Source of the DNA: Azolla caroliniana
Taxonomy: Eukaryota; Plantae; Polypodiophyta
Length of the DNA stretch: 40,188 bases
Direction of reading: 5' to 3'
NCBI GenBank assembly: GCA_043228905.1
Contig: JBHGNT010000281.1
Location: 1-40,188, forward strand
Below the pieces are notes generated by a model that did no database searches, had not been told where the DNA came from, and saw nothing but the letters and a program-made list of their open reading frames with translations. The position numbers and the translations under genes were made by a program. This document shows, in pieces, positions 1 through 26,500 of the stretch (its first letter is position 1; each line of letters starts with the position of its first letter).

Positions 1-1628
1 ATCGGATATCGCGAACCATCCGAGTCGACTTGATTGATGACCCATCCGATTCCGGTTGGACTTGTGTCAACCGTTACTATGATCGGTTGGTCATAGTTCG
101 GCTTCTTTAGTGCTTCTGCCCTCCATAGTGATTTCTTGAGCTTCTTCATGGCTTTGGTATGCTCCGGTTTCCATTCAAACTTCTTACCCTTCCGCAACAA
201 GTGATAGAGTGGGTCCACAATATGTGCATAGTGCGGAATCCATATGTGATAGAATGCACATGCTCCAAGAAACCTTCGGACTTCAGATTGTGACTCGCAT
301 ACTTCTTTCATAGCTTGAATCGCATTGATTTTGGTTGGTAACTGTCTTCGGCCGTAGGGCCCACATAGATGTCTGACTACCAATATCTCTTCTTGCCCGA
401 ATGCCGATTTCTCCCCAGAAAGTGTTAGGTGCACATCTTCTAACTTTTGAAGCACTTTCTCGCAATCGCGAATATGGTTGACTACGAACTTTCGGCATCC
501 TCGATCATCCATAGTTTTATCTTTTTCTTCTCTCGCACATCCTTTCATCGGAATGTCATCTAGGAACGGCATCGTTATCTCCGATATGCAATCTCGAAGC
601 ACCTTGTTCATCGTGTTCATCATATGTGCAACCGAGTTTGTCGCTCCTTGTGGTAGTGTGCACATTCAGACTAACCCTATCCGTGTCCGCATGGTGGTGA
701 TGTTTCAGCTCTCCACGGCTAGTTGGAATTGGTCATACCCGGAGTATAGGTCTCCGATGGAGTATATCGCGCATCCAGCAAAAGCTTCCGCAAATTCGTC
801 CATTATCGGACCGACTCCCGAGTTCCGGATCGTCACCTTGTTCACCGGTTGCAAGTCTTGGATAAATCGGAGTGACCCATTCTTCTTCGGAACCGTAAAC
901 CATCGATTTGAGTACGAAGCGTTTGATGGCTCTAGAATCCCCATCACCACCTTCTCCTTGAGCAAGTCGATGATTTTGGGAATATGCACCCGTGGCACCG
1001 GAATCGGCTTCAGGTTCCACGACACATGGTCAATTGTGAAGATCACCATCGGCTCCACTATCTTCGGATCAACACACCCTATCTCCTTCGATGTGAATGC
1101 AAATGCTTTCCCATGTTGTTCCAACATCCCATGGAATCGTTCTTTTTCATTTTGTAAAAGGAAACCACCTCCACCAATTCGAAGTATCTTTCGGGTTTCA
1201 TCCGTGAAGGCATGTCTGATATCCACAGACTTCCGAAGTGTCGGATCTCCCGAGACTTCTTTCCTCTTTTGCTCGCTATCGGTGGGTAACGGTCCCGCGG
1301 CCGGTTTCACTTTCTTCTCCACGGTCTTGTATTTCGTACTTACCATTGCTTCTTCTTTGCGGAGCGCATCTGGCCCCATTTTCACAATGATCTCGTACAT
1401 CTCGACTGATTCCACCGGGACTACCCGGTCTCCTTGGCTTTTATCCTCCACAAGCTCTTCAAGCCGTTGTAGTGTGCTCCCATAGAACACTTCTTCGACT
1501 ATTCCCACGATTTCTTCGTCTTCTTTTATTATTGATGCCGACCGTAACTTATCCTCCACTTTCGGTACTCTTTCTTCATTCCTCAGGTTACGGCCGTGTA
1601 CGTGGATGCCCCATCCAGACCGATTCAT
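1..1628 (-). pseudogene. pol reverse transcriptase region of the gypsy element
   Basis: ORF 705..1628 continues in frame through two TGA codons to TLPQGATNSVAHM and PFLDDIP, then on to EVRRFLGACAFY near 250-285. Confidence 0.88.
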
Positions 1629-1659
1629 ACTTGTTTTGCTCCGAGAGTTTTCTTCCTGT

Positions 1660-1723
1660 GTGGGGTATCATGGCTTCTCGAACTATCACTTCCCCACTCT
1701 GTAACAGTCCGCTCTAAAAATCC
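1660..1723 (-). promoter_or_regulatory. Putative -1 programmed ribosomal frameshift signal (slippery heptamer plus pseudoknot)
   Basis: G_GAU_UUU (1723-1717) directly before the UAG. 11-bp stem 1 CGGACUGUUAC/GUGAUAGUUCG. Loop GUGGGG can pair with downstream CCCCAC (1665-1660). Confidence 0.65.
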
Positions 1724-3843
1724 ATCCTTGTTTGGGACAAGAGCTCTCTCTTGTTCCTTTCATGATTTGTCGGCATAGTTCGGAATTGGACGGATTTCCC
1801 TCCGCTTTGGCTCCGAATTCGTGCAAAAGCCGCACCGTTATCGAGCACCTTCGTCTCCATTCGTGATGTCGTGATAAATGGTTGCCCGAGGATCACGGAA
1901 TGTGAAACCTCGTCTTGTACGAAGAAATTTTGGTCGATCTCGACATCCCCGATCTTCACCGTCACATCCGAACAAGCCGCAAATAGATATTCCATTGCTT
2001 TAGTGGCCGCCCGGATCTTCCATCCATGATTGGTGTTAATAGGCCACTTCTCCTTCCGATAGAACTCCTTGGACATCAAATTGATCTCTGATCCGTGATC
2101 AATCAATGCTAGCATGTGCTCTTTGATGTTGCCGATTCGGACCGGAGTTTCCGTAGTTGCACGTGCCCAGTGTGGCCTTGTATAGTGGGAGTTCGGTATT
2201 TCGTCCTCCACTTTGGTGTCATTCATTAAGACGGTATTTGCATTCACCCTTGGAGTATTTTCCTCTATACTTTGTCTTTTTCTCTTCACAAGATCCACAA
2301 GAAGATTGTGGAACTCCTTCTTCGCTATTTTGAGTAATTCCCGAAGCGAAAATTCTACCCGACTATCGAGGATTCTATCTTCGAACACCTTTTTCAATTC
2401 CGTTTATTATTCAATGTCCGAGGCGAGCTTGAATGCCGGAATCGTCTTTTCTTTTCCCTTCCCTCCGGAGTTCCAGCTTTCCGGTGTCTTTGATGGTCCG
2501 GCCACATCATCCGTGCGCCGTCGTTTTTCATCCACATACACTTCATGCAATTGACATAGCGCATGTACGCTATTCTTATCTACGGGGCACTCCCATCCCG
2601 TAGCTTCCCGGATACATTCCGCGGCGCTTCGGATTTCATCATGGTCGGCTTTCTTCGAAATTTCTAACACTTCCGGCCAAAAAGACGCCTTTGTTGCAGA
2701 TGACTCCCCCACACGTATTCCCACAGTTGTCGCATAATTGTCTTTCGCCGCGATCTCCTCCTCTAGGACCTTCTTCATGCCGCCTTTCCATAAGTTCGGT
2801 CAGAGTGGCTTCCGAGAATCCATCGAATGAATCCGATTTCCCTCGTAGTAGATAAGATCCCGTCGTAACGCCTCCTTGTGCTCGTCGCAATCTCTCCGAT
2901 CATGTTCGGTGTTATCGTACCATATGCATCGACGGTCCATGTACTTGGAACTTGTGGGACGGTCTTCCGTCTTCTTCACCATCGCGATTTTCAGATTCTC
3001 CATCTCCTTCAGCAATTGCTCCACCGTGGTTGCGTCGATTCCCTTCTCGGTCGTAGTCTCCCAAGCCCGCGGTTGATGGTCTTCCGATCCAAATCTCGGT
3101 TTTGGAATCGGTTCTGAAACCCTCTTTTCTTCGTTGGCAAGCCATTGCCCCCTCTTTGTGTATCGCGCGACGATATCCCGCACGCTTTCCCATGTTTTGG
3201 TGAGGCCACTCTCGATAGTCGTGTCCTCTAGAAGCACTCCAAGATCCTTTCGGTCCCGGACGTCTACGGCTCGTAAGAACATGATAACTTTGTCTGGTGC
3301 GAGGATAGCTTGATCTCTCGTAGAAAACTCCCCGAACCGACTTTCGAATGCCGAAAACACATCGAGGACCTTCATCCCCTTGTCCGGCGTTTCTACCCAA
3401 TCCTCGAATCCTCTCCGTGTTGCCTTGGAGGAGTCCTCGATAGCGAATGTGGTCTTTAGTGCCTCTTCAAACGCTTCCCATGTAGGATTTTGTTGTCGTA
3501 GTCCGTGGATACTTGCTTGAAGCCTGTCGGTAGCTACCTGGTTGAAGGATGTCACTTGCAGTCCTTCCGAAATCCCACACTGTATCATTTCCGCCTTGTA
3601 GTCCTGAAGATAGCGTGATATGTCCTTTCTGTTGAATTGCCCGATCCGTTGCACGAGCCGCTCTACTGCCGCCGCTATCTTCGACATTGCACGTTGTTCT
3701 TAAAGCATCTGCTCGAACATCATCATCATGTTGTTGGCCTCTGGTTGATTTTCCATCTCCTTGCCACCCGTGTTCACGTCAGGTTCACCAAATGTGTCGT
3801 GCCTTTCGGCTCCGGATCGTTGCGTGAGTCAGGTGGGAACCAT
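1714..3843 (-). pseudogene. gag-protease ORF1 of the gypsy element (~710 codons, five premature stops)
   Basis: Single reading frame ending ...QTRMDF-TAG. Each internal stop restores to CGA or CAA by one C>T change. Confidence 0.85.
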
Positions 3844-4281
3844 TGAGGTTTTGGACTAGGAGAAAAGAAAATTCTAAGGCAATTAAGAATATGAAATATG
3901 TTGTGAGAAAGAAAGATATGAAAAACTCGTTAATCCCACGAGTATAGTGTATTAGTGAGTACTCAAATTAAGAGAGAAAAAAAATAGTTAGCAAATTGGT
4001 GAATCCCACGAATATATTATATTAATCAACCCTTGTAAAATAATCAACAACCCCTATACATCTCTCTCTCTTCCTTATATGGTGTTGGAAGAGTCTAAGT
4101 TTATCACATGCAAGCATCATGCTTTTCCTAACTTTAGTTTTCATGCACACTGCATGTGCATGATTAGCTTTCTATCCCATCTTTTCTTTTAACTCGAGTG
4201 TGTATGCATAAATAACTTTTTGTAACATGCATATCTAGAATATTTACATGGAATAAAGTTTAGTATAACTTTAAAATTCAT

Positions 4282-4352
4282 AATATGCTAGTATAGTTGT
4301 AAGGTTGGGGTTTGTCTACGTGGAGGTATAGGGTTTGAATCTTGCCCTATGC
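4282..4352 (+). other. Degenerate tRNA-like sequence (possible SINE head or tRNA pseudogene)
   Basis: A-box-like TAGTATAGTTGTAAG (from 4289) and B-box-like GGTTTGAATCT (4332-4342) at tRNA spacing, with TGTC at the anticodon position and an AT-rich tail. The cloverleaf is not intact. Confidence 0.35.
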
Positions 4353-4637
4353 ACGTAATAAATATTTTTTAATATTTTATTTTATTTATTATACGTACTT
4401 TAAATCGGATATAGTATTTTACATATTTCACATAGTGTGTGATTCACACTACGACAACGGCGTTCGTATCTAGCATCGCGTCTCGGCGAGCCGGCTTTCG
4501 ATAACCAAAAGCAAGTAATCTTGGGACCAGCACGACTGCAAGCAACGCGGGTCTTTGGTATGCCCTTGAATTCCCACGTTATCGATACCATACGTGAGGA
4601 CTTGAAGACAGATGTTTTCGCTCAAGCCATTCTAGAA

Positions 4638-7595
4638 CATGTTCGTGTTCACAAGTGGAAGGATAAGGAATATTCCGTTTGATTTTGGAGGTCTTTTTGC
4701 TATTTCACAAAACACCTTGATACTGGTATCACATGTTCTCTAAAACTTGATGAAAAAGTTGAAAATTTCACCATTTGGTAAAATTGAAAAATGCGAAATT
4801 TTGGTCAAATACGAAAAGTAACTTTGTGTATTTTTAAAGAAAAATGACAACTAATAAGTTTTTAGATCTTAAAGAAATCAAAAGCAAAGGATTTCAAAAC
4901 AATGAACGTTTTTATTTTATTCGATAAAATGTTGTCTAAATTTGTTACACATAGTTGCACAACAAATACATTTGGGAGTTATTTGCATAAATATCATCAT
5001 TCTTTTTATGAGAATCACTACTATAGATAATATATAATTGTGACTCTTCCTCCTTATTTTCAAATGTACTAGTCAAATCATTGTCTTCACCAAATGGTGT
5101 CTCCAAATTGTGTGGAGTAAATCTTCTTCACATTCAATTTGAGATATCTTCTAGACTTGGTAATATCTCTTTTATTATGTATATCGTTGTTGTCCTTAAA
5201 CATCCAACTTTTGTCAGTGTAAAGTCATACACAATGATATCCACCTAACTAATGTCAATGATAGATGTATTACAAAGGTTTAATGCATCATCACATCCAA
5301 AACTTTACCAATGCAGAATTGGTACCCTAGCTCATGGCCATCTACATGTGTAGTTATTAATATCCCCACCTTGAGTTCTTGTAAGTTTCCTTGTCACTTG
5401 AGTTATGCTCATGTTGTCATCCTTTGTTCCACATAAATGTTTCTCTGTTGTAGATGAACCAAACTATGAAGATCAACATTAAGTGCTTGAAGTGGTCTTG
5501 AGAACCATGAGAATACTTTATAGACCATGTAAATGACATTTGCAAGGTTGAATTACCATCAACACAATTATTAATGGTTTTTTGTTAATCAATGATGCAC
5601 ATGTTCACCATAAGGTATCTTGTTATGCAACATACTTCTTTGCACTATTTGATATGCATCTTTTTCTCTTCTAAAAACAAAGATTTTAGTACGATTCAAG
5701 TTCATGTTTAAAAAACCTCTTTTATTTGAAAAACAAGAAGATTTTTAAACATGAACTCGATATGTTGTATCGAGTTGATGTAAAAAACAGAGTTTTGATC
5801 ATAATTCCATACAATTAAATTCATGTTTAAAGTTTTTTTAACCGGATTAAAAAAAATTTAATAATAATAAGTTGAGCTTGAGTTCATATAAAAACCACAG
5901 TTTTCATCACAATTTGAAACAATGTATCAAGTTCATGTTTAAAGTATATTTTTCTAATTTTTTTTCAATTTTTTTATGGAAAAAAATAATTTTAAACATG
6001 AATTCGATACATTGTCTCGACTTGTGATAAAAAATCTAGTTTTTCATCATTTATTAAAGCTCAAAAAAGAAATTCAAAAAAAACAACAAAAAACCAAAAT
6101 AAATAGAAAAAAAACCAAAAAATTTTAAACCCCCCCCAAAAAAAGCTTTAAACAAGTTAGCTTTTCTACACGAACTCGATACATTGTATCAAGTTTGTGT
6201 CAAAAAGTCGACTTTTCTACACGAACGTGTTGAAAACTCTGTTTTTCTACACCAACTCGATACATAGTATCGAGTTCATGTTGAAAAGCTAACTTTTTGA
6301 CATGAACTCTGTATTGAGTTCATGTTTAAAGCTTTATTTGGGGTTTTTTTTAAAATTTGCTTTTTTTCTTATTATTTTGGTTTTTTGTTTTTTTTTCTTT
6401 TAAAAATTTGAGCTTTAATAAATTATGAAAAAAACAGAGTTTTCATCACAAGTCGATACAATGTATCGAATTCATGTTTAAGATTATTCTTTTCCATAAA
6501 TAAAATTGAAAAAAATCAAAACAAATTGAAAAAATAATTAGAAAAATATACATTAAACATGAACTCGATACATTGTATCGAATTGTGATGAAAATTTTGG
6601 TTTTTATATGAACTCAAGCTCAACTTATTATTATTAAAAAAATTTAAATCCGAGTAAAAAAAACTTTGAACATGAATTCATTACATTGTATGGAATTATG
6701 ATCAAAACTCTGTTTTTTACATCAACTCGATACAACATATCGAGTTCATGTTTAAAAAACTTCTTGTTTTTCAAATAAAAGAGGTTTTTTAAACATGAAC
6801 TCAAATTATACTGAAATCTATGCTTTTACAAGAGAAAAAGATGAATATCGATACTACAAAGATGTATGTTGCACAACAATATACCTTATGGTGAACATGT
6901 GCTTTATTGATTAGCAAAAAACCATTAATAATTGTATTGATGGTAATTGAACTTCGCAAATGCCATTTACTTTACAAATTTTGTAGGGGAATTCTCAAAA
7001 GGAAGAAGAGGATAACATTGTAGATACCTTGATAACTTTGTGATATGTTCAGATTGATATATTAATGTTCACATCTAAAGTTTCACAGTTTTCACAGTTT
7101 ATGAATATCATCTACATTTTAGGAGTTGTGGATTTATCAAAATTGTTTATAAATATTGTCTACATTTCTTGAGTTGTGAATTTATGGATGTTAATGAGCA
7201 CTAAATTTATAGATGATGACATTAAGGATTGCAATGTTATCTCTTATACTTAAAACATTTTCAAGTATAACAAAAGATGTAATCTTAATCTCATCAAGAT
7301 AGTGAAACCATTAATCTTAACTTGTGCCTTGAGTTAACCATTGTGATTTTCTTTAAGTTAACTGCATTTCATATCTGCAAACTCTCAACATTTAAACATT
7401 TACTGAAAAACTATTCAATTTTAGAAATTATCATTTTGAAACTTGTTAAATCTCAAAAAATTAGCAAATTTTACATGTTATTTAAAACATGTGATACTGG
7501 TGTATCAAGTATTTGAAAATTGTCTAAAATCTCAAGATTATGAAAGGAATCTATAAATGGAATGCACAATCCTTCCACTCGTGAACGCAAACGTG
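4638..7595. mobile_element. Non-autonomous TIR DNA transposon (~2.96 kb), superfamily unresolved
   Basis: TIR CATGTTCGTGTTCACAAGTGGAAGGA (4638-4663) matches the reverse complement of 7570-7595, CACGTTTGCGTTCACGAGTGGAAGGA. Flanks are TTCTAGAA and TTCTAGCA. Subterminal inverted GATAC..GTATC motifs lie near 4717-4737 and 7486-7509. Excision restores the integrase frame. Confidence 0.88.
5529..6970. repeat. Large foldback inverted repeat (~700-bp arms, 2-nt centre at 6224-6225) built from palindromic ~45-bp modules
   Basis: The left end GTAAATGACATTTGC..CACATGTTCACCATAAGGTAT mirrors the right end ATACCTTATGGTGAACATGTG..GCAAATGCCATTTAC. The centre is ACACG-AA-CGTGT. The module CATGAACTCGATACAnTGTATCGAGTTCATG recurs along both arms. 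Confidence 0.92.
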
Positions 7596-8517
7596 TTCTA
7601 GCACAAATTGATCCCTCTCGAGCATCTTGTTCACAGTCGCAACAACCAGGTACGGACTATCGACAATTCGAATGTCATGATGGATTACTATTCTTTAAGA
7701 AACTCTTGTATGTTCCTAATGGTACTTGTCGCCTTCAAGTAGTCCAAAACTGTCATGACACATATACAACTGGGAATTTTGGTAGTACTAAAACACTAGA
7801 TTTAGTACAACAATCCTTATGGTGACCCCATATGCGACAATTTGTCGAAGATTTTGTTCGGACTTGTGATACATGTTGTAGAGCAAAAATGCCAAGGCAT
7901 CATCCATATGGTTTATTAGAATCATTACCAATTCCAAACAAGCCATGACAATCCATTGCCCTAGATTTCATCATAGATCTTCCGGTCTCTAAGGGATTTG
8001 AGGCGATCTTAATAGTAGTAGATCGATATACGAAGATGGCCCATTTCCTACCATGTACTAAGGAAATCTCTAGTGAAGAAACTATTGAAATTGTCATGCG
8101 TGAAGTATGTCAGCATCATGGCCTTCCCGATAGTATCATCAATGACCGTGGACCCTAGTTCGTCTCGAAGTTTTGGAAGCACCTCTTTAAAATGCTTAAG
8201 GTCACTTGTAACCTCTCATTTGGCTACCACATGCAAACAGACGGCCAAGCAGAACGAACAAATCAAACGTTGGAGCAGTATCTTCGGTGCTTTTTAAGCT
8301 ATCATCAAGATGACTGGGCGAATATTCTCCACTTCGCCGAATTTGCATATAAAACTTTGTCCACTCATCGACAAAGGTGACACCATTTTATGCTTACACG
8401 GGCTATCACCCCCGATGGTGTGTATTTGAAACCCCAAAGTTACCTACAAATCCTTGTGCAGAGGATCGTTTGGAGCATCTACGTAAGATACAAGCGGATT
8501 TATCTACTCATCTACAT

Positions 8518-8975
8518 TGCAAAAAGTAGCGTGCGGAAGCAAGTATAAAGACCAAACAGAAGGAAGAAAGCTCAGGTTTAATGGAGAGCTTGAGCTTACA
8601 CAGTATACGCGGGAGAGACAAAGAGAGTGTGAGAGAGAAAACACAAGAACTATATTCAACAAAAAAAATACTCAATCTCTATTCACTACTGTATACATAT
8701 GTGTGTTCAATGAACACTTTTATACAAGTCCTAGAAGGACTGACAGAAGTACTGACAGTACTTCAATGCTCATTAAGAGCTCCTACACTAACTCCCAAAT
8801 ATATTCCTCACGGAATATCTTCCCTAATGGCCTCTCGGTTTACGCACCGATCCGGCCCTACCTACGCACCGGTCTGCGTACCGATTTACGCATTCGGCCT
8901 AACCGATCGGTCCCAACCGATCCAGTCCTCGGCTTCTTCAGCCGATCCGGCCGATGTTGAGCTTGTCTCTCAACA
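8518..8975 (-). mobile_element. Solo LTR (458 bp), copia family related to the LTR at 10430-10842
   Basis: TG...CA ends and a perfect 5-bp TSD TACAT (8513-8517, 8976-8980). The reverse complement begins TGTTGAGAGACAAGCTCAAC and shares blocks with the 10430 LTR. Confidence 0.9.
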
Positions 8976-9269
8976 TACATCAAGCTCAACAAACACACAA
9001 GGTTTACGCGGATCGTCATCGGCTTCCATCCAGTTTTGACATTGGAGATCAGGTGTGGCTACTACAACGACACATCAAGACTACTCGCCCATGCGAGAAG
9101 TTGGATTACCAGCGATTAGGTCCTTTCCGTATTATCGGAAAAATTAATGATGTCGCTTTTCATCTCGATCTATCTCCACAACTTCGGATACATCCGGTGT
9201 TTCATAGTTCTCTCCTCGAACCCTATCAAGACAACACCATCCCAGGTCATATTAAACAACCTCCACCCC

Positions 9270-10842
9270 CAACCGTGGAGCACCTTTAGTGCACACACTG
9301 GATACTACGGTATGTTAGTGGCACTAAGGATAAAGGTCTGTTATACCGACACGGTATACCTGAAACGTTAGTTAGATATACAGATGTTGATTGGGCTGGT
9401 GATGCATCGGATTGTCGGTCCACCTCTGGATATAGGTTTTCTCTTGGTAGCGCGACTATTCCATGGAGCAGCAAAAATCAACCAACCGTAGCTCTGTTGA
9501 GCATGAAAGCTGAGTATCGGGGCGTTACCATTGCCACCTATGAAACTATACGGTTTCAACGACTGCTGCAAGACCTCTGAATCGAGGTACCGACCCCGAC
9601 CCTGATCTATTGTGATAACGTAAGCAACATACAACTCGCTAAGAACCTTGTATTTCATGCTCGGACAAAGCACATAGAAGTACATTATCATTGTGTGCGT
9701 GAACGGGTCCTAAGCGGTGAAGTTGAACTTCGGTATGTTCACACGGATCAGCAGGTTGCTGACATCTTCACCAAGCCGCTCGGATCAGACAAGTTGCAAC
9801 ACTTCTAGGAGATGCTCAATCTCTAGCAACTCGACGAGCCGCACTTGAGGGGGAGAATGGAGACAAGTAATGGCACCGGACAACGAGCCGACGAGAAAGA
9901 GAGAACCAAGACAGAGGGAGACAAGAAGAAAAAGGAAGCCGAGTCGATCGAAAGAGTCGGCACATCCAGACAAGTCGAAGAAAACGACGATGACAACAGA
10001 GTCAAGAGAGACATAACTGACCAGAGAAGAAGGCCAATACCCGGACATGGTCTGATTTTGTGGAGGGCTTGAAAATGGAAGACGAGTTGGAGACTACCAA
10101 CTCGGTCAAGAGCTGGAACAAATCGAACACAACCGATTCAGTTCAACAATTTGATTCAGAAGAGCTGAATCTGTTGAAGGCCAAGCGAACTAGAGGGCAA
10201 CGAAGACGGCGCCAGAGTTGCAACAACGAAGGAGCTGAGATGGGCTTGTTGAGCAAACAAGTCGATCGAGGAGGTTGAGTAGCGCAAACCAAATGGGTCG
10301 TGGAAGGAGGAATTGGATCAGACGAGGAGCGAGAGCAAGGCGGAAGGACACCAGAAGAGCAGATGAAAGAATCGGCTGCCCCAGACACTAACACCAAGAT
10401 CCGACCTCAAGTTGAGCTTGAGGGGGGAGTGTTGAGCGAGCAAGCTCAACCGGATCTGGATCGGCTGGATAAGCCAGAGCTGGATCGTATCCAGAACTAG
10501 GAGCCGGATCCACGTGTGTACCGGTAGGCCGTATAGAGGTCTATGCTTCTAAACTACTAGGTAGTCATGGTCCTCGTAGTTAGTGCCAGACACTCATATG
10601 AGTATTGAAGTACATAGTACTTCTGTCAATCCCTTGTGGACTTGTATAAAGAGTGTTCACTGAGCACATCCTATGTACAGAGTGTTATTATTTTGAATGG
10701 TTTTTATGTTTTCTACTCTCTTTCTCTCTCCTGTGTATTCTTTGTTCCTAATCTTCCATTAAACCTTTATTCTCTGTTTTCAGTTTTCAATTGTTATTCA
10801 GATAAACCGGTTTGTCAAATCTTCCGCATATTAACTTTAACA
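9270..10842 (+). mobile_element. Ty1/copia 3' remnant: end of RT, RNase H, extra 3' region, PPT and 3' LTR
   Basis: Motifs ILRYVSGT, DWAGD..RSTSGY, AEYR, IYCDN, FHARTKHIEVHYH and VADIFTKPL. PPT GAGGGGGGAG (10420-10429) directly precedes the LTR. Confidence 0.9.
10430..10842 (+). repeat. 3' LTR of the copia remnant
   Basis: Starts TGTTG right after the PPT and ends TTAACA. The end was placed by similarity to the solo LTR end (CTTCCGCA...CA). Confidence 0.75.
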
Positions 10843-12400: not shown

Positions 12401-12530
12401 ACAGCCACCCACACACAGAGTCTCTGTCTCTTGTTTCTTGTCTCTGTCACCCTCACCATAATACTCTGCACACGCGCCCGCTCGCAGTTTGAAAACAAAA
12501 AACAGAGAACAGTGACTGAGCTCTCTGGCT

Positions 12531-13861
12531 ATGGCGGCCTCCTCCTCCTCTGCTCTTGCTCTTGCTCTTGCTCTGCTGGCTTTCCTCTTCATCTCCTCCT
12601 CCTCTTCTTCATTGCTCTGTGCTGCCTCCACTACTCACGTCGTGGGCGAGTCCTCTGGCTGGACCGTACCCGACCGCACCTCTGATTACTCTCGATGGGC
12701 CTCTTCTCGAACCTTCTACGTTGGCGACGTCCTCGGTGAGAACAGAAAAGAACTAGAAAACCAAAAAAATCCTCTTGTCACTTCACATTGTTGTTGTTTT
12801 TTAAACTGCTCCTTTCGTATCTCTGATTCCGTTACAAATGTACGCCTTTATGGCACACATTACTTCTGCGTAGTGTCTTTTCTCTTCTTCATTCCTTTCT
12901 TCTTCTTCTTCTTCTTCTTCTTCTTCTAAATCCGTTACGCGTACTATGAACAGATTCGGTTTTTGTATAAGGTTTTAGAGCTTCTGGTTTCTGATTTCTG
13001 GTTGCGCCATTATTGCCTTGCATACCGACGAACTGAATGCGGTTCTCTCCATATCTCAGCCCACTCCCCCTCCTCAAATCGTAGTGGTTCTGGGCTATGG
13101 AGATAAATCTCAAGCAAATCATTGCTAGCTAACTAGCAGAATCAATCGAAACCCACATTTTTAAGTTATAGAATTTCCGCCCCCCCCTATTCTTTCTGTT
13201 ATCGATCTTAACTGATCGGAAAAACAGATATAGGCTATGGAGATAAATGCATTACCAGAATCATTGCCTGTAATAGAAACGTGAAGCGAACCATGACATA
13301 TGCTTCAACAGAAACCCTAAAACACGTATTTTTTCTTTCTTTTCAAGCTCAGCTTACATATTCCATTGCGCATATATATATATGTCTTTTAAATTTTAGA
13401 AGCTCTCTTTTATGCGACTTATCTTCGTGCTTGATCTTTTGGCAGAGTTCAGGTATGATAGTGCGGAGCACACAGTGCTAAAGGTGACGAGATCGAGCTA
13501 CAGTAACTGCAATATCACAGCTCCAATGGCGACCTTTGCAGATGGGATGTCTAGGATCACCCTCTCCACCAGAGGCTCTTACTACTTCATCTGCGGTGTC
13601 CCGGGGCACTGCGATGCAGGCCAGAAGCTTCAGCTCAACGCAGTTCAGCGACATCATCAAGCTCAGTCCCTCGCATCTCTACCTCCTCCCTCGCCATCGC
13701 CATCTCCTTCCCTCTCTTCGTTATCTCCACCTCCCATCTCTGCAGGTGGACCTACCATGTCTTCATCTTCATCATGTTCATCTTCTGCTCCATCTCCCTT
13801 TCTCCAGATTCTCGTTTCCTCCCTCTGTGCCATTTTTCTTGCTCGCTTCTGCTCTATTTAA
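12531..13861 (+). CDS. Phytocyanin (stellacyanin/mavicyanin-type blue copper protein), probably GPI-anchored; exons 12531-12735 and 13446-13861; 206 aa
   Basis: Signal peptide, HVVGESSGW and YSRWASSRTFYVGDVL|EFRY joined across a phase-1 GT-AG intron. Copper ligands are His (HTV), Cys and His (ICGVPGHC) and axial Gln (GQKL). A Ser/Pro-rich linker and hydrophobic C-terminus follow. Confidence 0.93.
12897..12927. repeat. (TTC)n microsatellite in the phytocyanin intron
   Basis: Directly visible. Confidence 0.9.
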
Positions 13862-20500: not shown

Positions 20501-23500
20501 CATTTGTAACTAATTATAGTTGGAGGGTGGCAACTCCAGACCTGCACTCTCTTTCATCTTTATTATCTCTCTTTTACATTCTCTCTCTTCCTAGATTCTT
20601 CTCTCTCTAGAATTTGCAACTCTTTAAATGCCTTCTCTCTCTTCCACTTTTTCCAAGATATTCCCTCTTATTCCTAGTTTATTGTACATGTTTGGTAGTA
20701 CAAGAGTCACTTAACTACCAAACAACCATTTCACCCACTTTCCCCAGTTTTGTATAAATAGGCTATACCAGCCTCTTTTGTAAAGACTTTTATTTTTGCT
20801 ACTACTTACAAACAAGCTCTACTGTTTGGCTGTGTCTCTACTCTTTGCAACCATTTTTTCTACTGCTGTCTAACAGCCTTCTCACAGCTTGGCTGTGTCT
20901 GTTTTGTTCTAACAACTCTTCCACTGCTGCTATTAACAGCTTTTCTCACATGGTATCAGAGCAGTGAGGTCTCCATATCCTCAGCCTGTTTTTTTTGCCA
21001 AAGAGCACACATACCTATTCTCTTTTATCCCTCCCTCCCAACCCTATAGAGGAGGTTCTCTTAGCAGCCACCCTCCCAACCTATAGAGGAGGTTCTTCGT
21101 TTTTCTTTTCCCCTCATCTGAGCCTCGCCTAGCATCTAGGGAGGAGTAGAAAGCCCTGAGCATCTACCTACAGCTGCTGCAAATTGTCTAGTTGTAGCTC
21201 AAGTGGAGGATATCCATGGCCTCACATGCCACCATTGTTTCATCCACCATTCCCCAACTCCCGAAAGAGTCCATCTTGGATGGGAACAATTACTTGGATT
21301 GGGAATTACAAATAAAGACCTTGCTACAGTACCATTGTCTATGGAATGTAGTCAATGGTAGTGACAAGAAACCACCGGTAACTTTATCCTCTTCAACCAA
21401 ATCAGTTGCTGGCTCATCTAACGCTGAGATTGATGCTTGGCTAGATAAGGATTCTCATGCTCATGCTTTCCTCATGTTTAATATTAAACCGAGCATGGCT
21501 TGTCAATTTCAAGATACAGATGAAGAGACAGCCAATGAACTATGGGCAGCCATAAAAAAGAGGTATCATCGAGCTAATCATGCCCAAATGATAGCTATTC
21601 AGAGCCAACTAGCAAATCTCAAGATTCATGACACTCCCAACATCATGGATCAAATAATGCAATTTGTTACTCTCTAAAAGGAACTAGTTTCTTTGGGAAG
21701 CAAGTCAACTAAGTTGAGTTTGTGCATTGTCTAATGTTAAAGTTGCCAGAGTCATTCTCAGCCTTTTGTGACACAATTTTTCTTCTTCCCAACACGCTTA
21801 ATATGAATACATTTCTTGGCATGCTACAAGGCAAGGCAACAAGGAAGAAAAGTGCTCAAACTTCCAATGAGACGCTTCTACATGCGAAAAGTAAAGGCAA
21901 GTGGAAGCAAAATGGCAACTCCTACAACAAACCCAATCCGAGACCACCAAACAACCCGGCCTTCAAGGAGGTCACCTGTCATTATTGTGGTTACAAAGGT
22001 CACATTCAGCCCGACTGTGGTTAGTAGACAGTGGTGCCACTGCACACATGACTTATGACAAATCCATTTTGCATGATGTGAAGCCTAGCTCCTACCAAAT
22101 CTCCATCGGAGATGCCTCAAGCATTGAGGCTTCGTTTGTTGGTAATGTGTTTCTGAACACTTCTTCAAATGATGAAGCCGTCGTTCTTCAAGATGTGCTA
22201 CATGTGCCTCACATCTCTGCCAACCTACTTTTGGTCTACTGAATCACTAAGCAAGGTTATGGAGTCTACTTTGATAGCTCAGTTCTGGAAGTCATTGACA
22301 CCAACAACCTACAAATTGTAGCTAGTGGCACACAAGAAGGGGGTTTATATCGCTTGAAAGGTTCTCGTAGCCCCTTGGAAAAATCCAAATCTCATCTTCT
22401 TCATCTTCTTCAAGGCTCTCATGCATTGGTGGCACAAGAATATCCCACGTTGTGGCATGCTAGGTTTGGTCACCTCAACTACGATTCTCTACAAAAGCTC
22501 TCCTCTTCATAGCTAGTTGAGGGTTTGCCTATTTTCAAAACTCCCAATACCCCATGTGTTGCTTGTCTTCACGGAAAGCAACATCGAGAGCCTTTCCCTC
22601 ATGAAGCCACTCACTATGCAACATCTATCTTGGAGTCAGTGCACATGGATCTTTGTGGTTCCATGAAAACCACTACTCTTGGTGGTGCATGCTACTTCAT
22701 GCTTATCATTGATGTAATATCTTATTTGGTCTTATAGGCCATTTTGGCCTCTTAAAAGACGTTAATATATCTTTCTTTCTTTCTTTCTCAAAGACAAAAG
22801 CTACAATATACCTAACTTGAGAATCTCACATGTGCCAAAAACCAGATTCCCTCGTTTCTTCTCTTTTCATCTTATTTACTTTTATATTTACTGTGTAATA
22901 TTTATTTTATTTTTATTTGTTCTCAAAGATGAGACAACACTCAAGATGTAATCTCTCTCATTTGGTCTTATAGGCCATTTTGGCCTCTTAAAAGACGTTA
23001 ATATATCTTTCTTTCTTTCTTCTTTTTCGTAAGGTTTGGGTTTATTTTCTTGTAGAAAAATCTCAAGCCTTCACCAAATTTCAAGAATGGGTAGCTCTTG
23101 TGGAGAACACGACAACAAAGAAAGTTCGAAAGATCAAGTCCGACAATGGTGGAGAGTTTATCTCCCAAGCTTTCCACCATTTTTTCTCTCAACGAGGCAT
23201 TGCTCGCCAATTTCTACACCCAATACTCCTCAACAAAATGGAGTTGTGGAAAGGAAGAACCGGATCGTTCAAGAGATGTCTCATACAATGCTATCTCAAT
23301 CTGATCTTCCTCTCTTGTTTTGGGGTGAAGTTGTCAACACAGCAGTCTACATCATCAACTGCTGCCCAACAAAAGCAGTTCCTGCAATGACCCCTGCGGA
23401 AGCATTTATAGGTGTAAAGCCCTTAGTATCTCATTTTAAAGTCTTTGGTTGTGATGCTTATGTTCACATTTCAGATCATAAAAGGACGAAATTTGAGTCC

Positions 23501-26500
23501 AAAACCAAGAAATGCAAATTTCTTAGTTACAACACACAATCTAAAGCCTACAGGTTATGGGATTTAGAATCAAAGTTCCTAGTCATCTCTAGGGATGTTC
23601 ATTTTGTGGAGTCTAAACCGGATGACAGTAGGATTTCACATGAGTTCACGGTTGAAATTCTAGCTCCTCCGGAATCTCCTATTTTACAAGATGTCTCACC
23701 TTCAAGGCCCCCATCTCCTCCTACTCAACCCCTAACTTCACCAACAATTCAAACCTCTCCCTCAACTCCACTCGTTTCCCCTCCCTCTACACACCAGTTT
23801 CCACCACTTCCCCCAAGTGGCTTCAAGCCACCTTTCGTGATTCTCATCTCTCCGATGCTGAACATCATGAGTATACATCTGGTTCTCCAACCAACATGAA
23901 AAGAACACGTAGGTCACAACGGCCTCTTCACTCATGCAACTTTGCCTTACGGTGCACTGTTGTGCAATCACAAGAATCCACAACAGCAAAAGAGACCCTT
24001 GTTCTTCCAAAGTGGAAAGCAACAATGGAAGTTGAACTTGATTCCATTGAGCAGAATCATACATGGGAGCTGGTCCCATGGCCTCAACATCGACAAGTCA
24101 TTGGACTGAAATGGATTTTCAAGACCAAGTACCATGTTGATGGTACTTTGGATAAGCACAAGGCACGTTTAGTTGCAAAAGGTTGCTCACAAGTGGAAGG
24201 AGTGGATTACGAGGAAACATTTGCTCCAACAACAAGGTACACCTCTATTCGATGTGTGCTTGCGCTTGCTGCTCACCACAAATGGCCCATCTTTCAAATG
24301 GATGTCAAGTCAGCCTTCCTTAATGGTGACTTGAAAGAGGAAGTTTATGTTGAACAACCTCCAGGTTTTGAGATTTCAAAGCGGGAAAACATGGTCTACA
24401 GGTTACACAAAGCCTTGTATGGATTAAAGCAAGCTCCGAAAGCTTGGCATGACAAAATTGATACCTTCTTTCTCTCACTTGGGTTTACGCATTGTTATGC
24501 TGACAACAATCTCTATGTCTTTTCCCAAGAAAATCTGCTATGCTTGATCATATTATATGTTGATGACCTTCTAATTACAGGGTCCCTTGTTTCTAAAATC
24601 GAGGAGCTTCGTGCTGACCTTAAAACCACATTCGAAATGACTGATCTAGGACTTCTCCATTGCTTCATAGGTATGGAGGTCTATCAATCAAATGGTGGTA
24701 TCTTCCTCAGCCAACATAGGTATCTCAGCCAGCTCCTTCAGACCTATGGCATGTCAAATTGCAGGCCACTCTCTTGTTCGATGGATCCTAACTCAAAGCT
24801 ATCTCATGAAGATGATTCTCCCATATTTGAAGATATCACCAAATATAGAAAGTTAATTGGGTCTCTTCTTCACTTACACCAGGCCTGATTTGTCCTATAA
24901 TGTGAGTATTCTCAACCAATTCTCAAGTGCTCCGAAACAAAGTCATTGGCAAGCAGCAATACGAGTTCTTAGGTACTTGGCCAACACACTCGACTATGGT
25001 CTATCTTTTAGAAGTGGCATTGAGTTTGTTGGCTACTCGGATGCTAATTGGGCAGGTGATATTGATTCTAGAAGGTCCACATTTGGCTATTGTTTTATGT
25101 TAGGTTCATGCTTGATTTCTTGGAAATCAAAGAAGCAAATTTCAGTTTCTACTTCATCAACAAAAGTTGAATATTGAGCCTACTTGGATACTTTTTGTGA
25201 ATTGCTATGGTTAATGCAATTATTTTATCACATTGGTGTTTTGCAAGACTCTCCTATAGCAGTTTTCATTGACAACCAAAGTGCTTGTGCCTTGGCACAT
25301 AGCTCGACATTTCATGGTAGAACAGAACATATTGAAGTGCACTACCATTTAGTTCGTGAATTAGTGAAATCACTAGTCATCAACATAGCATATCGTCCTA
25401 CTCAAGAAAATGTGACTGATTTATTTACTAAGCCCCTTCCAAGGCAAGCCATTGATCAGCTCCTTGGTCGACTCAATGTTGGACTGCCGTTCTAGAGCTG
25501 AGAGGAGGTGTTGGAGGGTGGCAGATCCAGATCTACACTCTCTTTCATCTTTATTATCTCTTTTTTACATTCTCTCTCTTCCTAGATTCTTCTCTCTCTA
25601 GAATTTGCAAGTCTTTAAATGCCTTCTCTCTCTAAAATTTGCAACGCTTTAAATGCCTTCACTCTCTTCCACTTTTTCCAAGATATTCCCTCTTATTCCT
25701 AGTTTATTGTACCTGTTTGGTAGTACAAGAGTCATGTAACTACCAAACAACCATTTCACCCGCTTTCCCCAGTTTTATATAAATAGGCTATACCAGCCTC
25801 TTTTGTAAAGACTTTTATTTTGCTGCTACTTACAAACAAGCTCTACTGTTTGGCTGTGTCTACTCTTTGCAACCATTTTTTCTACTGCTGTCTAACAGCC
25901 TTCTCACAGCTTGGCTGTGTCTATTTTGTTCTAACAACTGTTCTGCTGCTGCTATTAACAGCTTTTCTCACAATTATTTTGAATTGGGCTGTCTTTTAGG
26001 GGCTAACAACTGGTAGTCTTCCTACCTTCATTGATGTTGGGAACAGCTTTGGGGCGGCAGCTATTGTGGAGGACAACATCATTAACCAGGTTTCTTGATA
26101 TTATTTTATTTAGTCTTTATTTTACTTGAACAGCTTTAGGGTGGCTGCTATTGTGGAGAACAGCATTATTCACCAGGTTTTGTGATGTTAATTTGTATTT
26201 TTTCAGCTTTCTAGCAATGGAAAAAGAATCATCATGATGGGGGATGATACATGGCTGCAGTTGTTTCCAACAGAATTTACAAAAACATATCCCTTTCCCT
26301 CATTCAATGTCAAAGATTTAGACACTGTAATGACATTCTCAACCTCTACAGGATGCTTTTTATCTCTATTGCTATATTTATGTGAAAGTAAAAGTTGCCC
26401 AAATATGTTGGTGATGTATTGAAATGATTGCTTGCAATATGTGAAGTGTAAACAGCAACATGGCATTACAACATATTAAAATCCAGGACAAATAGCTTAT

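Follow-up and report, generated by a model that had tools for sequence, protein, structure and literature searches.

We identified a candidate −1 ribosomal frameshift signal at the end of the Gag-protease reading frame of a retrotransposon in Azolla caroliniana, on the minus strand of a 40,188-nucleotide stretch of DNA (contig JBHGNT010000281.1, here called the window). In this element and its relatives, a conserved layout and a predicted pseudoknot likely cause a −1 shift after the protease (PR) that would yield a Gag-PR-RT-RH-IN protein, a reading to which we assign a probability of roughly 0.9. The layout, the frame relation, the conservation of the heptamer, the covariation of both stems, the constraint on the linker and the fold of the protease together point to this reading.

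ORF1 of the window copy ends ATG GAT TTT TAG (1725-1714), and the minus strand carries, at 1723-1717, the heptamer G_GAU_UUU that a preliminary description of this DNA had placed there. The other parts of the proposed cassette are likewise present: a 5-nt spacer between the heptamer and an 11-bp stem holding three G-U pairs, an 11-nt loop with GTGGGG, and CCCCAC 13 nt further on. All 11 bp pair in the window, while the conserved stem is an 8-bp core that begins 6 nt after the heptamer. By itself the window site is not above chance. About 0.88 chance matches to GGATTTTTRR are expected in the window, 4 of the 55 heptamers of similar type found there are accompanied by a hairpin at least as stable as −10 kcal/mol, and folding z-scores in three intervals around the site were −1.28, 0.15 and −0.45, a score of −4.89 being obtained only for a hand-trimmed 42-nt piece. 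Chance is excluded by conservation in relatives and not by single-site statistics.

As had been described, the −1 frame of the window copy closes after about 30 codons (TGA 1627-1625) and RT lies in the third (+1) frame. One later indel had been assumed to explain this. A single one-base length difference, at about 1559-1561, was indeed found, and the TGA is a separate lesion besides. Compared with the related loci L001 and L002, the window copy shows one frame-changing length difference in 3.8 kb, at 1559-1561 and 3′ of the cassette, and the TGA is missing from ∼97–99% of the read depth in four DNA runs. The TGA and the frame break are private decay of the window copy, which is dead.

The element carrying the cassette is a decayed, moss-type Ty3/gypsy LTR retrotransposon that resembles Phygy in several features (Table 1); LTRs, a primer-binding site (PBS) and the domain order GAG-PR-RT-RH-INT were found in the window and its relatives taken together. 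The PBS motif is likely of the tRNA-Trp type, and Rfam RSV_PBS gave a weak match at the PBS site of L059 (E 0.26). At their 3′ ends, L001, L007 and L009 likewise show a purine tract and then the TGTCGTA start, and the target-site flank reads NCGN in L004 and L044, but not in L007. ORF1 of the window copy has premature stops at 3702-3700, 2802-2800, 2409-2407 and 2406-2404 ahead of its terminator TAG (1716-1714). In L001, ORF1 is uninterrupted over 712 codons and includes the zinc knuckle, and Pol comprises 1,201 codons with RT, RNase H and integrase. The zinc knuckle, CX2CX4HX4C, is intact in L001, L058 and L059. Relatives extend past the part held in the window, through RT-RH-IN. The element length is estimated at ∼7.0 kb by adding the window LTR to the L001 internal region.

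Table 1. Features of the element and of the cassette in the window.
Feature	Position	Strand	Basis or remark
5′ flank CCGT, fits the NCGN target site of Phygy	4457..4460	−	3′ copy lies outside the window
5′ LTR, 662 bp, inverted ends TGTCGT...ACGACA	3795..4456	−	Sequence
Primer-binding site, likely tRNA-Trp	3773..3790	−	Motif in 33 loci and the window
ORF1 Gag-protease, decayed, presumed ATG	1714..3756	−	85.7% identity to L001 ORF1
Nucleocapsid zinc knuckle, one Cys lost	2887..2928	−	Window translation
Retropepsin-fold aspartic protease, putative active-site Asp-His-Gly at 2100-2092	1717..2169	−	AF2 model of L001 orthologue
Slippery heptamer G_GAU_UUU	1717..1723	−	Window sequence and conservation among relatives
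Stem 1, 5′ arm (conserved core 1710-1703)	1701..1711	−	Folding, covariation in relatives
Stem 1, 3′ arm (conserved core 1687-1680)	1679..1689	−	Folding, covariation in relatives
Stem 2, 5′ arm, GTGGGG within the 11-nt loop	1692..1697	−	Loop/downstream covariation
Stem 2, 3′ arm, CCCCAC, 13 nt past stem 1	1660..1665	−	Loop/downstream covariation
Transframe linker, ∼125 codons, broken (TGA 1627-1625; ∼1559-1561)	1341..1716	−	Comparison with relatives
RT and start of RNase H, stops at 707-705 and 668-666	1..1340	−	Element leaves the window

Several other features were observed in the window. A Ty1/copia element occupies 20519-25972 on the plus strand, with LTR blocks 95–96% identical and ∼5 kb apart and with gag (21198-21677), integrase (22992-23390) and RT (23656-24888). 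A second gypsy relic at 7618-9289 (+) combines an integrase-like DNA match with a Tf2-type SH3 domain, and the DNA at 4650-5276, which shows 71–77% similarity to L030 in its 3′ part, may be left over from a related family. A long AT-rich inverted repeat at 5529-6970, with arms 85–93% complementary and internal short repeats, is MITE- or foldback-like. At 12516-13861 (+) lies a plastocyanin-like (phytocyanin) gene split into two or more pieces.

The last domain of ORF1 is a retropepsin by fold, which places the junction after the protease and bears out the gag-PR then RT layout proposed in the preliminary description. An AF2 model of the L001 orthologue built from 110 rows reached a pLDDT of 87.9 (42 with 29 rows), and its top Foldseek matches were Ddi1 and retroviral proteases (E 1e-6). 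Pfam Asp_protease_2 scored below its cut-off in 13 of 29 members, an Atlas search with a Physcomitrium homologue agrees with a protease, and a PDB sequence search gave no significant match. The putative active site reads Asp-His-Gly instead of Asp-Ser/Thr-Gly in 158 of the 185 motifs counted. The in-frame MAV protease is reported as attenuated in the available text of PMC3185560, and the Asp-His-Gly site may be a matching attenuation.

Relatives were collected by a metagenome scan from which the best 80 of 194 loci were kept, 75 of the 80 coming from one series of assemblies. The stop was callable in 79 of these best 80 loci and the heptamer in 72, giving 73 sequences with the window. The 8 loci without a heptamer call are truncated, rearranged or mis-framed, and a covariance model finds the cassette in 3 of them. 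Gag-PR ends in Asp-Phe in 63 of the 79 loci, which were selected on protein only among the best 80 of 194. All 63 encode Asp by GAT, Phe is TTT in 60 and TTC in 3, and a G precedes the Asp codon in 62, so that 62 of 63 read G_GAU_UUY, a heptamer of the X_XXY_YYZ type in which G_GA is a known XXX variant. The stops of these loci (TAG 27, TAA 25, TGA 11) show that the stop is not a decayed sense codon; some families stop 5 codons later, within stem 1. When the loci were thinned to 28 families, the G was kept in 25 of the 25 where a synonymous choice existed, and it is retained across Glu, Ser, Ala, Gly, Gln, Thr, Leu, Val and Pro codons, indicating selection on the nucleotide and not on the residue. 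The corresponding log10 P of about −11 holds only if rows are independent, and the rows are related. P values here overstate independence because of this relatedness, the single assembly series behind 75 of 80 loci and the choice of the best 80 of 194. Two heptamer variants, G_GGU_UUU (L074, L078) and G_GAU_UUC (L063-65, L072), are compatible with slippage.

On the preliminary description, RT should lie in −1 with no stop between it and the heptamer, and this is what the relatives show. Of the 73 sequences, 58 are open for 125 or more codons in the −1 frame and 2 in the −2 frame, and not one is open in frame 0; 3 of the remainder reach the end of their contig, and 10, the window among them, have every frame closed. 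In 28 of the 73, the −1 frame is open for 1,000 or more codons into RT. Across nine pairs, pN/pS was 0.16–0.64 in the linker vs 0.04–0.09 in RT; the linker, 120–150 residues long in relatives, is under protein-level constraint.

Protein homologues end at the same place. Among the best 120 longer homologues, 68 end in [DN]F, 29 in [DGN]F plus 5 residues and 3 in VFx, and only 1 of the 120 carries RT domains; in 111 of 111 proteins ending DF after the protease motif, the preceding residue can be encoded by a G-ending codon. Named sources of homologues are Physcomitrium, Riccia, Calypogeia and Adiantum, and a search of viral contigs found no relative, the 30 pattern matches there being without PR or RT similarity. 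The wider lineage does not rely on a frameshift throughout: P0217 (1,374 aa), a distant relative, encodes PR-RT-RH-IN as a single frame in which Asp-Phe occurs roughly where the junction would be, and PR is joined to RT in P0386, a gene model from Riccia. In P0123, P0147, P0214 and P0301, ORF1 ends VFFKDYG or EFFQDYG in a short-spacer-type register, possibly a further variant. The PR-linker joints differ among the Physcomitrium and Riccia gene models P0076, P0103, P0106, P0180, P0306 and P0386. L034 has two cassette matches (1354-1429 and 1692-1767), probably an internal duplication within a decayed copy. An element of the same family lies inside a cyanobacterial genome bin (L081:1-3841), likely as plant contamination.

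The region downstream of the heptamer was aligned, almost without gaps, for 32 cassettes. RNAalifold returned the same 8-bp stem 1 unprompted; 97.3% of its 256 cells are paired, as against 22–46% in slid controls, and 6 of its 8 pairs show compensatory changes. The three additional pairs of the 11-bp stem vary among families. The spacer from heptamer to stem is 6 nt in 28 of 29 representatives outside the L057/L058 type, inside the 5–9 nt range of canonical −1 signals. For stem 2, each loop pairs better with its own downstream segment (−339 kcal/mol) than when cross-paired (−274 ± 11 kcal/mol), and none of 20,000 permutations over 31 representatives was as good; the rows are related, so that none of the structure statistics is a strict probability. 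The stem 2 sequences are swapped between families (GCGAGA/TCTCGC, CAAGG/CCTTG, ATGAGGGT/ACCCTCAT). With fixed columns stem 2 is 77.6% paired; some families have no more than 4–5 bp of it, and for roughly one family in four, pairing with its own segment is not stronger than with those of other families. The loop thus pairs with a downstream segment by covariation, and we predict a conserved H-type pseudoknot 6 nt downstream of the heptamer. The conservation of heptamer and stems that the preliminary description anticipated is therefore found in the relatives, compensatory changes included. A covariance model matched the window only at the cassette and recovered 45 of 50 held-out loci, which are close kin. 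On the divergent L081, whose stem 1 differs in sequence but not in position and whose −1 frame is open to the contig end, the model reached only E 0.85. Rfam found no matching frameshift family in L001, L058 and L059.

A stop codon directly before a pseudoknot is also the layout of readthrough, as in MuLV. Reading through the ORF1 stop, either as a Retand-like single stop (GAG-PROT:s:RT in the available part of PMC6317226) or under stimulation by the pseudoknot, would suit this order of elements. It is refuted by the frame, as frame 0 is never open for 125 codons in the 73 sequences; all three stop codons are used, some of them 5 codons on and inside stem 1, and the probability of readthrough is close to nil. 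Hardly more credible is a continuous ORF broken by chance mutations. Six premature stops interrupt the Gag-PR and RT frames of the window copy, besides the linker TGA, and P0217 offers a single-ORF distant relative, but 28 families whose frames are otherwise open over long stretches share this junction, by which decay is refuted.

Separate initiation of Pol, by reinitiation or internal entry at a linker AUG, would leave the heptamer and the open overlap unexplained. An AUG does precede RT in every intact linker, and one linker Met is common to L057 and L058; the first AUG, however, varies from codon 1 to 109 across families, so there is no conserved start, and we regard this route as very improbable. 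We give equally little weight to an Ogre-like intron covering the PR-RT region and removed from some transcripts. Splicing is documented for Ogre (PMC6317226, available part), and the junction is spanned in several gene models from Physcomitrium, Adiantum and Riccia, but these jump to different points, as automatic predictions would, and the introns drawn over the frameshift in the Physcomitrium and Riccia models are likely artificial. The linker evolves as a protein, which argues against an intron, in 58 of 73 sequences no stop closes the −1 frame between the heptamer and the end of the linker, and splicing provides no explanation for covarying stems at a fixed spacer.

Two loci, L057 and L058, depart from the −1 layout. 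Their cassettes (L057:2836-2900, L058:2498-2562) read AG_GUU_UUU with Pol in the −2/+1 frame, and ORF1 ends CAG GTT TTT NAC TAG in both. The −1 frames close after 0 and 5 codons, respectively, and Pol is open in the −2/+1 frame over 1,152 codons in L057 and 1,099 in L058. The two loci are 77.5% identical over 5.6 kb and form one clade in the RT tree (support 100/99). Purifying selection is seen in PR, in the linker (0.23 in the −2/+1 frame) and in RT (0.07), so both lines replicated with the −2/+1 layout. Both stems are kept and covary, with a spacer of 5 nt vs 6 nt in the others. Among the cluster members listed, 6 of 15 have the L057 type of protein end, 2 of 4 the L058 type and 2 of 2 a third type; at the protein level only, VFx ends also occur on P0052, P0292 and a Calypogeia protein.

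A −2 shift to Pol is the best reading of these two DNA loci and a reasonably probable one. AG_GUU_UUU is a −2/−1 site in PRRSV (PMC7618472), −2 shifting is optimal at spacers 1–2 nt shorter than −1 shifting (PMC3458567), both according to the available text of these papers, and the 5-nt spacer fits this optimum. Re-pairing in the A site in −2 is possible for G_GUU_UUU and impossible for G_GAU_UUU, so that GAU to GUU is the enabling change. Less probably, Pol is reached in these two loci by shifting +1, or by slippage of the polymerase along the U run. The +1 and −2 shifts arrive in the same frame, the A-site codon of L058 could re-pair UUU to UUU in +1, and P-site re-pairing is poor both ways; the spacer, the heptamer and the GAU to GUU change all speak for −2, and the U run is merely 5–6 nt. 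On a wider scale, we lean slightly towards an ASLV-like, pseudoknot-dependent −1 shift throughout this lineage of bryophyte and fern retrotransposons, with one living branch switched to a natural, pseudoknot-driven −2 shift by a change of heptamer from G_GAU_UUU to AG_GUU_UUU and a shortening of the spacer from 6 to 5 nt. The RT tree leaves the −2 clade unrooted at its basal forks, so the direction of change is not fixed.

The layout resembles that of ASLV (RSV, MAV), in which, according to the available parts of PMC3185560 and PMC5009743, the protease is in frame with Gag, a −1 shift occurs near the gag end and a pseudoknot is the stimulator. The element is a plant retrotransposon with another heptamer and a compact pseudoknot, and in L001 Pol reads up to the purine tract and 3′ LTR and is followed by no env ORF; the element would work alike, but is not a member. 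In the umbravirus and dianthovirus signals, as far as the source text at hand describes them, G_GAU_UUU is likewise followed closely by a stop and read by plant ribosomes, but the stimulator is a stem-loop with long-range pairing, in contrast to the local H-type pseudoknot predicted here. L057 and L058 share AG_GUU_UUU and a −2 ORF with PRRSV nsp2TF, the −1 frame of L057 meeting an immediate stop. The PRRSV site, in the portion of the literature available, has no RNA structure and depends on nsp1beta and PCBP, its stimulator being a C-rich element bound by protein, whereas L057 and L058 have a covarying pseudoknot 5 nt downstream.

Among plant elements, a likeness is seen to Phygy of Physcomitrium patens, a non-chromovirus of the Ty3/gypsy group, with which this element shares the lack of a chromodomain and a compact internal region; the 5′ flank fits the NCGN site of Phygy, and the PBS is likely of its tRNA-Trp type. 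Physcomitrium homologues are close (∼50% over the query), and all five Pol frames scanned have one RNase H region each and no chromodomain match. The estimate of ∼7.0 kb compares with 7.7–10.0 kb for Phygy, and relatives of the element reach liverworts and ferns. Flank, PBS and domain content are the features that suggest a Phygy-like element. The ORF organisation of Phygy is listed as not determined by Neumann et al. 2019 (PMC6317226, as are the organisations below, all from the available text). Ogre has GAG-PROT, a spliced spacer and RT, and Retand has GAG-PROT, one in-frame stop and RT; these Tat-clade elements also set GAG-PROT apart from RT-RH-INT. Unlike Ogre, the present element has no non-coding spliced spacer or extra RNase H, but a −1 overlap with heptamer and pseudoknot, and unlike Retand it has no single in-frame stop before RT. 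The overlapping GAG:o:PROT-RT-RH-INT of Tcn1 and Selgy, in mosses and lycophytes, implies recoding; their break precedes the protease, whereas here it follows. GAG-PROT:o:RT is listed as prevailing for no lineage. The layout put forward in the preliminary description stands, but the Gag-PR/RT split is already documented in Ogre and Retand, and the new part is the mechanism. Full-text literature searches found no description of the cassette, and the available parts of PMC7466625 and PMC2864245 do not describe the junction; subscription papers were mostly beyond reach, so absence from print is unproven.

In the mechanism we propose from these comparisons, most ribosomes would terminate after Gag-PR. 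A minority, likely paused by a pseudoknot that presumably forms in vivo, would slip by −1 at G_GAU_UUU, tRNA-Asp and tRNA-Phe re-pairing from GAU UUU to GGA UUU, and would go on to read the linker, RT, RNase H and integrase. The position of the signal would make the protease stoichiometric (1:1) with Gag and ration RT and integrase. The frameshift would also explain mis-joined ORFs in gene models. A plant LTR lineage would thus carry a classical −1 signal in about 30 natural covarying variants, and the −1 families and L057/L058 would form a natural pair on one pseudoknot scaffold for testing shift direction. If the switch to −2 is true, evolution has run an experiment whose outcome agrees with the mRNA-tension model for the direction of shifting.
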